NCBI GenBank assembly: GCA_038045665.1
Contig: JBBSXW010000007.1
Span: 1 to 56,443, forward strand
DNA: 56,443 bases
DNA from: Nanobdellota archaeon
GTDB taxonomy: Archaea; Nanobdellota; Nanobdellia; SCGC-AAA011-G17; JACPIM01
Reading direction: 5' to 3'
Position 1 is the first letter of the stretch, and each line of letters begins with the position of its first letter. The notes under the pieces are model-generated. The model was given only the letters and a program-made list of their open reading frames with translations. It was not told where the DNA came from and did no database searches. Both the position numbers and the translations under genes were made by a program. This document shows positions 35,121 through 35,213 of the stretch, piece by piece.

Positions 35121-35134
35121 TTCACCAATAGTTT
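35121..35134 (-). other. tRNA intron 3 (14 nt, position 42/43)
   Basis: Mini BHB of the form CACC-[AG^A]-AA-CTA-TT-GGTG-[AA^G]. It shares its 3' decamer ATTGGTGAAG with intron 1. Confidence 0.55.
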
Positions 35135-35139
35135 CTGGT

Positions 35140-35163
35140 GACTGCCTAACTCAGTTAATTAGA
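35140..35163 (-). other. tRNA intron 2 (24 nt, canonical position 37/38)
   Basis: Relaxed BHB. The central helix CTCT/GCAG has one C-C mismatch, the bulges are TA^T and TC^A, and the inner helix CTAATT/AGTTAG has 6 bp. Confidence 0.55.
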
Positions 35164-35170
35164 TAAGAGC

Positions 35171-35213
35171 TTCACCAATAAGAACCAAGTTCTTATCAAC
35201 TCCTAACGATATT
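35171..35213 (-). other. tRNA intron 1 (43 nt, position 30/31)
   Basis: The BHB context is AGAG-CACC-[TG^A]...GGTG-[AA^G]-CTCT. The outer and central 4-bp helices are fully paired, and an internal 8-bp hairpin ATAAGAAC/GTTCTTAT is present. Confidence 0.6.

Follow-up and report, generated by a model that had tools for sequence, protein, structure and literature searches.

Look-alike boundaries of two introns in a woesearchaeal tRNA-Lys(CUU) gene with four predicted introns

The tRNA-Lys(CUU) locus and its introns

The window analysed here is the whole stretch of 56,443 nucleotides (nt) of contig JBBSXW010000007.1 (assembly GCA_038045665.1). It belongs to the genome of a groundwater archaeon of the Candidatus Woesearchaeota (DPANN), referred to as G000 (717 kb in 82 contigs, 34% G+C, 78% complete), whose genome size is put at about 0.7-0.9 Mb. 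On the minus strand of the window lies a tRNA-Lys(CUU) gene with five exons and four predicted bulge-helix-bulge (BHB) introns (Table 1), arranged as GGGTCGTTAGCTCAGCACGGTTAGAGCACCTG - intron 1 - GCTCTTA - intron 2 - ACCAG - intron 3 - GAAGTCGCGGGTTCAAA - intron 4 - TCCCGTACGGCCC. Introns 1 and 3 of this gene have near-identical boundaries, and the origin of this likeness is the subject of our analysis. In silico excision of all four introns resulted in a 74-nt cloverleaf with perfect stems, which was called as tRNA-Lys(ctt) by ARAGORN, while eight of the 16 possible combinations of intron removal gave no ARAGORN call. The unspliced gene was detected neither by ARAGORN nor by Rfam, and the window contains no Rfam match at gathering level; weak Rfam matches to SNORD44 (E = 7.4) and mir-582 (E = 0.45) over introns 1 and 2 were rejected as chance. 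Orthologous tRNA-Lys genes adjoin the same small Toprim gene.

Intron 1 is of the hBH type. Its central helix pairs C25-A26-C27-C28 with GGUG in the context CACC.UG^A ... GGUG.AA^G (carets mark the cuts), the 3' bulge is AA^G31, and the outer helix h consists of G22-A23-G24 with C32-U33-C34. A 30/31 intron of between 12 nt and about 150 nt was found in every tRNA-Lys gene examined (19 sequences, with either a CUU or a UUU anticodon, that represent six families of the order: f1, f27, f5, f28, f9 and f19). The helix occurs in these genes as CACC/GGTG, CGCC/GGTG or GGCG, CAAC/GTTG, CATC/GATG and CACT/GGTG. All cells (100%) pair, two pairs are changed on both sides, and the covariation score was reached by none of 500 shuffles; sliding the partner strand by one base lets the pairing of intron 1 fall to 34-44%. 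In 18 of the 19 sequences AA directly follows the helix strand.

Intron 3 is of the HBh' type, near to a bulge-helix-loop (BHL). Its central helix is built from the last base of intron 2, a C at 35140, together with A38-C39-C40, which pair with GGUG; the bulges are AG^A and AA^G43 (CACC.AG^A ... GGUG.AA^G), and the inner helix h' is a marginal one of 2 base pairs (bp), AA/UU, over a 3-nt loop. A 42/43 intron is present in seven intact genes from about four lineages, with sequences that are otherwise unrelated, and an eighth, decayed copy (AAGCCATTGGTGGAA) was found in the gene remnant of L089. It is absent from G001, which belongs to the same genus, and from G005, G010, G011, G013, G006, L096, L099 and L100. 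Across the seven genes, 95% of the cells pair, three pairs are changed on both sides, and 0 of 500 shuffles reached the score. In each of the seven genes the last base of intron 2 can pair with the final base of the helix strand (three C-G pairs, three A-U pairs and one G-U pair), and AA follows the helix strand in all of them. As inner helix, AA/UU is found in G000, L093, L095 and L076; GG/CC replaces it in G003 and GA/UC does so in G041, while in L075 the pairing is broken. A metagenome search for close strains found no contig with the exact pattern and three contigs with a looser one; in a pattern scan of the genome collection, four of eight matches were bacterial false positives, and no new 42/43 introns were added. 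The covariation of both helices in relatives argues that the two segments would act as real BHB introns, as a preliminary description of this DNA had proposed.

Intron 2 occupies the canonical position. Its outer helix is the anticodon stem, which is interrupted by introns 1 and 3, so that only G31-C39 (1 bp) can form in the primary transcript. In intron 4 a central helix UUCA/UGAA is flanked by the T stem as outer helix and by an inner helix of 9 bp; homologous 59/60 introns occur in L075, L093, L095, L096 and G006. The hairpin of intron 3 and the full motif of intron 4 are present in the unconstrained minimum-energy fold of the whole precursor. The motifs of introns 1 and 2 were not in the minimum-energy structure, and folding was not used for those two.

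A homologous intron 2 (TCTAA...CAGNN) is common to G000, L095, L093 and L075. Because these four also have the 59/60 intron in common, their intron 3 is taken to be of common ancestry. About half of the positions in the loop of intron 3 differ among them, with GGTGAA kept in L075. The DNA flanking the L075 gene is only about 70% identical to that of G000, and intron 3 is therefore old; it is probably younger than intron 1 and patchy in distribution.

Table 1. Features of the tRNA-Lys(CUU) locus, compared intron 3 sequences and repeat copies (positions refer to the window unless a contig of G000 is named)
Feature	Position	Strand	Remarks
tRNA-Lys(CUU) gene	35245..35058	minus	188-nt precursor, five exons and four introns
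Putative TATA-like box	35270..35278	minus	TTTTTTATA; -33..-25 from tRNA position 1
Exon 1	35214..35245	minus	positions 1-30: acceptor 5' strand, D arm, A26, C27-G30 of anticodon stem
Intron 1	35213..35171	minus	43 nt, position 30/31
Hairpin element	35203..35178	minus	GGAGTTG-ATAAGAAC-TTG-GTTCTTAT; inside intron 1
Exon 2	35164..35170	minus	7 nt; G31 and C32-A37, including anticodon CUU
Intron 2	35163..35140	minus	24 nt, position 37/38
Exon 3	35135..35139	minus	5 nt; A38 and C39-G42
Intron 3	35134..35121	minus	14 nt, position 42/43
Exon 4	35104..35120	minus	17 nt; G43, variable loop AAGUC, T-stem 5' strand, U54-A59
Intron 4	35103..35071	minus	33 nt, T-loop position 59/60
Exon 5	35058..35070	minus	13 nt; U60, T-stem 3' strand, acceptor 3' strand
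Discriminator T	35057	minus	followed by TTT; CCA not encoded
Central helix, intron 1	35219..35216 / 35176..35173	minus	CACC/GGTG
Central helix, intron 3	35140..35137 / 35126..35123	minus	CACC/GGTG
Shared 11-mer	35180..35170 and 35130..35120	minus	TATTGGTGAAG
Intron 3 of G000			AAACTATTGGTGAA
Intron 3 of L095			AAATGCTTGGTTAA
Intron 3 of L093			AAATACTTGGTTAA
Intron 3 of L075 (= L097)			AACTTTTCGGTGAA
Intron 3 of G003 (= L077 = L081)			AGGAGTTTAAATTCCGGTTAA
Intron 3 of G041 (= L087)			TGAAGTCTGACTTCGGTTAA
Intron 3 of L076			AAAAGTCATTAAAGCTTTGGTGAA
Other hairpin copies in G000	C61:2733-2767, C61:11764-11792, C10:11678-11706, C68:43890-43918
Loci of repeat AAAGCCTTTCTTAGAAAGAAAGCCTCGGGAAAGAA in G000	C60:4364-4578, C68:43865-44051, C61:11648-11818, C74:8333-8502

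Shared boundaries of introns 1 and 3

The preliminary description had pointed to the near-identical boundaries of introns 1 and 3 as a sign that one had been copied from the other within the gene. The boundaries themselves were confirmed: the 5' sides read GCACC-TG^AAT in intron 1 and TCACC-AG^AAA in intron 3, the CACC/GGTG helix occurs twice, and the decamer described as common to the 3' sides (ATTGGTGAAG) even extends by one base to an 11-mer. Across the 717 kb of the genome the decamer has six copies, and the four that are not in introns 1 and 3 are outside any tRNA locus identified. Related introns do occur elsewhere, as shown by the 30/31 introns of six families and the 42/43 introns of seven intact genes, so that the lack of relatives named in the preliminary description as an argument against its reading does not apply.

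The anticodon stem of this tRNA, C27-C28-U29-G30-G31 with C39-C40-A41-G42-G43, is a palindrome CCWGG (CCUGG/CCAGG), and it is preceded by A26 on one strand and by A38 on the other. Because of this symmetry the contexts ACCUG^G and ACCAG^G both belong to the exons and represent the two strands of a single helix. At the first site the C ahead of ACC is C25, the last base of the D stem; at the second it is the last base of intron 2. With CACC at both sites, GGUG is required in both introns (GGUU would also be allowed), and the sites 30/31 and 42/43 are equivalent docking sites for the same helix. Within the 11-mer the terminal G belongs to the exon (G31 or G43), AA is the clade-wide bulge, GGTG pairs with CACC, and TT of intron 3 pairs with its own AA (intron bases 2-3). 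Nine of the 11 identical bases are thus forced, and two (TA) are free. The likeness of the raw sequences exceeds chance; without the exon bases and those required by the motif, only the TA match remains.

We compared the seven bases upstream of the helix strand in the five lineages with both introns, scoring each intron 3 against its own intron 1 and against the intron 1 of 14 other lineages. The own-gene local scores were 4, 3, 3, 4 and 2 (mean 3.2), the cross-lineage mean was 2.99 +/- 0.74, and 17% of the cross pairs scored 4 or more. Intron 3 is therefore no more similar to intron 1 of its own gene than to that of other lineages. A four-base TATT run beside the helix was found in intron 3 of G000 only, and the other four intron 3 sequences have no such run with their own intron 1. 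The run matches every intron 1 ending in CTTATT, the 3' terminal sequence of the hairpin element. In L075 introns 1 and 3 have just GGTGAAG in common, and in L093 and L095 just GGT plus the bulge; the pattern across these three relatives is GGT(G/T)AA. Since the loop bases of intron 3 differ at about half of the positions, the signal of an old duplication would not be expected to survive, and three or four free bases in an intron of 14 nt are too few to decide its ancestry in either direction. A duplication is neither demonstrated nor excluded by these comparisons, and the likeness itself is not evidence of copying.

From these results we consider it probable that the gene is a working one, that introns 1 and 3 are separate, and that their look-alike boundaries are imposed by exon sequence and motif geometry and do not reflect detectable copying. 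Several points weigh against this reading. The TATT run of G000 has a chance of roughly 1% at fixed register, which is borderline over five lineages and not negligible. A gapped alignment gives the ancestor AA-CTTATT-GGTGAA, which is as parsimonious as the others and equals the 3' end of intron 1. The intron boundaries of the relatives were set by cloverleaf and motif, and the pair counts are biased towards structure. Finally, the sole EndA endonuclease found in G000 lacks the insertion of the Nanoarchaeum equitans (N. equitans) alpha subunit, and its cutting of relaxed motifs is assumed.

According to the preliminary description, intron 3 could be intron 1 with its internal hairpin deleted. 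The hairpin does lie in intron 1, but as a family repeat that is absent from the short intron 1 of several lineages. Its 14-mer GGAGTTGATAAGAA, with one mismatch allowed, has 0-20 copies per genome in the family versus 0-1 for the reversed control. The family form is (G/A)GAGTTG-ATAAG-variable stem and loop-CTTAT, and the upper stem varies with compensating changes (GAAC/GTTC, GGAT/ATCC, GAAAC/GTTTC). In G011 and G009, 10 of 24 copies end 0-17 nt before the start of an open reading frame (ORF) on the same strand; other copies lie just upstream of tRNA 5' ends or in tRNA introns, in either orientation. G000 has six copies or close variants, all in tRNA introns and five of them antisense to the tRNA. 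The repeat might be mobile, or might serve as an operator or an RNA signal. A function as TATA box was rejected, as it lies at -25..-16 from gene starts, which is too close, and a separate TTTAAA-type box is present upstream; a K-turn or C/D box was rejected for the lack of matching GA pairs. The first ten bases of the element resemble an extended Shine-Dalgarno sequence (GGAGNTGAT).

Intron 1 is short and free of the element in G013, G074, G003, G041 and G150. Because such forms persist, intron 1 probably grew by taking in the element; it is probably an old intron that gained the hairpin later. Intron 3 resembles the short intron 1 as any minimal intron at an ACC site would.

Intron sharing in the genome and other origins of intron 3

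Introns of G000 other than 1 and 3 do share sequence. The 29-mer ATAAGGATTGCATCCTTATCAACCTGCAA is identical at 29 of 29 positions between the D-region intron of tRNA-Arg(TCT) (C10:11599-11728, minus strand) and the 59/60 intron of tRNA-Leu(TAG) (C68:43865-44051, minus strand), which is direct evidence that intron sequence was recently shared between tRNAs and between positions. A second repeat, AAAGCCTTTCTTAGAAAGAAAGCCTCGGGAAAGAA, of 35-36 nt and 91-94% identity, was found in introns of four tRNA loci at differing positions (Table 1). Both repeats indicate that intron or element mobility exists in G000. The idea that introns propagate by copying thus finds support in shared intron families elsewhere in the genome and none in the pair for which it had been put forward. 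A related copy of AAAGCCTTTCTTAGAAAGAAAGCCTCGGGAAAGAA was seen in the T-loop intron of the L095 tRNA-Lys.

The closest relative found, L101 (= L089; 4528-6000) from Hainich groundwater, has a rebuilt locus next to a Toprim gene that is 85% identical to that of the window. A 371-aa (amino acid) ORF without a family match is followed by a tRNA-Lys(CTT) whose acceptor stem is a different one (GGGCTTG) and which has no more than one short intron, near 9/10. Adjoining this tRNA is a fossil 3' part of the multi-intron gene, which starts from A38 and still contains the 42/43 and 59/60 introns, and upstream of the ORF are pieces that resemble the former 5' start and a 3' end in inverted orientation. 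The locus looks like a gene replacement. By eye the ORF appeared LAGLIDADG-like, which was supported by neither Pfam nor PDB; Pfam gave only a weak helix-turn-helix match.

An intragenic transposition would make intron 3 a duplicate of intron 1 in a short ancestral form, or of the 3' part of that intron, that was placed at ACCAG^G before G000, L095, L093 and L075 split and has diverged since. The equivalence of both sites for helix formation and the 11-mer identity in G000 would suit such a copy, but all matching bases except two are forced, own-gene similarity shows no excess over cross-lineage similarity, and the introns of L075, L093, L095, G003 and L076 share the forced bases only. The short intron 1 sequences AATTTTTGGTGAA (G074) and AATAATTTTGGTGAA (G013) look like intron 3 of G000 (AAACTATTGGTGAA), and a gapped three-way alignment allows the ancestor CTTATTGGTGAA. 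Real intron families such as the one common to tRNA-Arg(TCT) and tRNA-Leu(TAG) also speak for mobility; no heritable route for insertion at the RNA level was evident, although reverse transcriptase was not looked for. The observation of 42/43 introns exclusively in genes with a 30/31 intron is uninformative, because all sampled tRNA-Lys genes carry the latter. On balance we regard this transposition as unlikely, though it deserves serious consideration. In a related proposal the palindromic stem would have let a short ancestral 30/31 intron seed a second one at 42/43, and would have done so more than once in woesearchaeal tRNA-Lys(CUU) genes. We hold this to be doubtful as well; if true, palindrome-seeded insertion would be a concrete, site-defined form of BHB intron transposition, with the target set by exon symmetry.

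It is very improbable that intron 3 stays unspliced, either as a 14-nt insertion retained as an enlarged variable region or because the gene is a decaying pseudogene. After removal of introns 1, 2 and 4 alone, an 89-nt sequence that keeps intron 3 is still recognised by ARAGORN as tRNA-Lys(ctt), but in the resulting fold C27 and A43 are mismatched and the extra arm is weak, with an A-G pair; neither a stable extra arm nor a 5-bp anticodon stem that is intact without excision, as expected of a class II-like long variable arm, was found. Seven insertions of 14-24 nt keep a strand complementary to N-A38-C39-C40 followed by AA, with compensatory changes, for which an extra arm gives no reason. Decay of the gene would find a parallel in L089/L101, where just a 3' remnant is kept beside a nearly intron-free tRNA-Lys(CTT). 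In G000, however, no second tRNA-Lys(CTT) was found by ARAGORN, the Rfam tRNA model or anchor searches, within a tRNA list that is partial, and the exons are conserved between G000 and L075 while the intron loops diverge. Equally hard to credit is an event confined to G000, in which a short gene conversion or slipped copying between the GGTGAAG sites made TATT identical in two introns of separate origin. The run is specific to G000 among the intron 3 sequences compared, and the L089 remnant has CATTGGTGG, so that part of the run predates G000. The AA/UU inner helix, unchanged in G000, L093, L095 and L076 and covarying in G003 and G041, accounts for the TT; this leaves two bases, for which chance suffices. 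Separate introns with boundaries imposed by exon and motif therefore remain the reading we prefer.

Predicted splicing, machinery and comparison with other archaea

In the mechanism that we propose, a working tRNA-Lys(CUU) gene would carry four protein-spliced BHB introns, with introns 1 and 3 on the two strands of the palindrome (A26-CCUG^G and A38-CCAG^G). The archaeal endonuclease requires that the four bases upstream of the 5' cut pair with the four intron bases upstream of the 3' cut in a 4-bp helix. With (C)ACC at both sites, both introns would end in GGUG and the clade-standard AA^G bulge, and intron 3 would also need UU before GGUG, pairing with its own 5' AA. Introns 1, 3 and 4 would fold their motifs in the primary transcript and leave first, in any order, and intron 2 would leave last, as its canonical motif could form only after the loss of introns 1 and 3 and the joining of the anticodon stem. 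Ordered splicing is also implied by the helix of intron 3, which uses the last base of intron 2. Splicing is thus probably ordered, with both excision and order inferred from the sequence. Forcing the helices of introns 1, 3 and 4 together costs 3.9 kcal/mol. More speculatively, GGUG of intron 1 might pair with the second CACC in a motif whose cuts would remove G31-G42 including the anticodon; the local hairpin of intron 3 would compete with this pairing.

One EndA gene was found in G000, a 175-aa ORF on contig C54 (PF01974 match, 96 bits), whose best solved relatives are the N. equitans alpha subunit (E = 1.7e-37) and M. jannaschii EndA. An RtcB ligase is encoded on contig C5 (PF01139 match, 496 bits). 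The RtcB match (C5:1094-2469, minus strand) is in two pieces, with one in-frame TAA within the main piece, and could reflect an N-terminal split, a frameshift or an assembly error. The TATA-like box upstream of the tRNA-Lys(CUU) gene has a spacing that would let transcription start at the mature 5' end or no more than a few bases away. Inspection by eye of orthologues (L018, L067-L074) revealed an AT-rich TTTAAA/TATA-like box that is similarly spaced from position 1, at roughly -35 to -20.

Standard tools (ARAGORN and the Rfam tRNA model) detected about 14-15 tRNA genes in G000. Searches anchored on the acceptor and T arms gave about 25 tRNA loci, a partial list and not a census, most of them with two to four introns (D-loop, 30/31, 37/38, 59/60). 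A BHB motif path search on the focal locus had been dropped for these anchor searches: it produced 679 candidate introns in 480 nt, with false cloverleaves that scored like the true one, and missed the true solution because the outer helix of intron 2 is broken in its genomic context. The tRNA-Lys(UUU) gene of G000 (C61:2536-2795, plus strand) has a 30/31 intron of about 150 nt with the helix CATC/GATG, a compensatory change relative to the CUU gene. This intron holds C-box-like ATGATGA and GATGAAG strings. Two further introns of the gene are a canonical one and one at 59/60, the latter of which bears the hairpin element.

Multi-intron tRNA genes of Thermoproteales (Sugahara 2008, Fujishima 2010, as reviewed in PMC4033280 and PMC4090602) likewise have several BHB-type introns per gene, at non-canonical positions. 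The host described here belongs to the DPANN (Woesearchaeota) and is not a crenarchaeon, and the gene has four introns, compared with a stated maximum of three per gene in Thermoproteales (PMC4033280). Thermoproteales have families of similar introns across tRNAs and positions within one genome, and here the same applies to ATAAGGATTGCATCCTTATCAACCTGCAA and the second repeat family. Measured against the transposed families sensu Fujishima 2010, introns 1 and 3 show no similarity beyond the forced bases, while other introns of G000 are near-identical. In Asgard archaea, tRNA genes have up to five introns that are missed by standard annotators and are sited where a BHB can form, with repeated gains and an unresolved arrival route. 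The Asgard study found no shared intron families; G000 has clear ones and is in this respect closer to the Thermoproteales pattern.

Among the DPANN, the disrupted tRNA genes already described (ARMAN-2 with its broad-specificity epsilon2 endonuclease, PMC3239211; survey in PMC5829648) come from similarly ultrasmall archaea and have relaxed BHB, hBH and BHL introns outside the anticodon loop. Incomplete tRNA sets under standard prediction have been noted for Pace- and Woesearchaeota, and multi-intron genes were anticipated in DPANN (PMC5829648). Unlike in ARMAN-2, EndA is here a single alpha-type protein and not the three-unit epsilon2 enzyme.

In attempts to explain how archaeal tRNA introns reach new sites, similar boundaries are easily taken as evidence of copying. 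The present case shows that exon sequence and motif geometry can mimic copying, and the comparison of own-gene with cross-lineage similarity offers a usable control for such claims. Documented here are four-intron tRNA genes in Woesearchaeota, a tRNA-Lys 30/31 intron in six families and a recurrent 42/43 intron. By borrowing the last base of the neighbouring intron, the 42/43 helix predicts a fixed and testable order of splicing. The real shared intron elements make G000 a reasonable place to study the mechanism by which introns spread.

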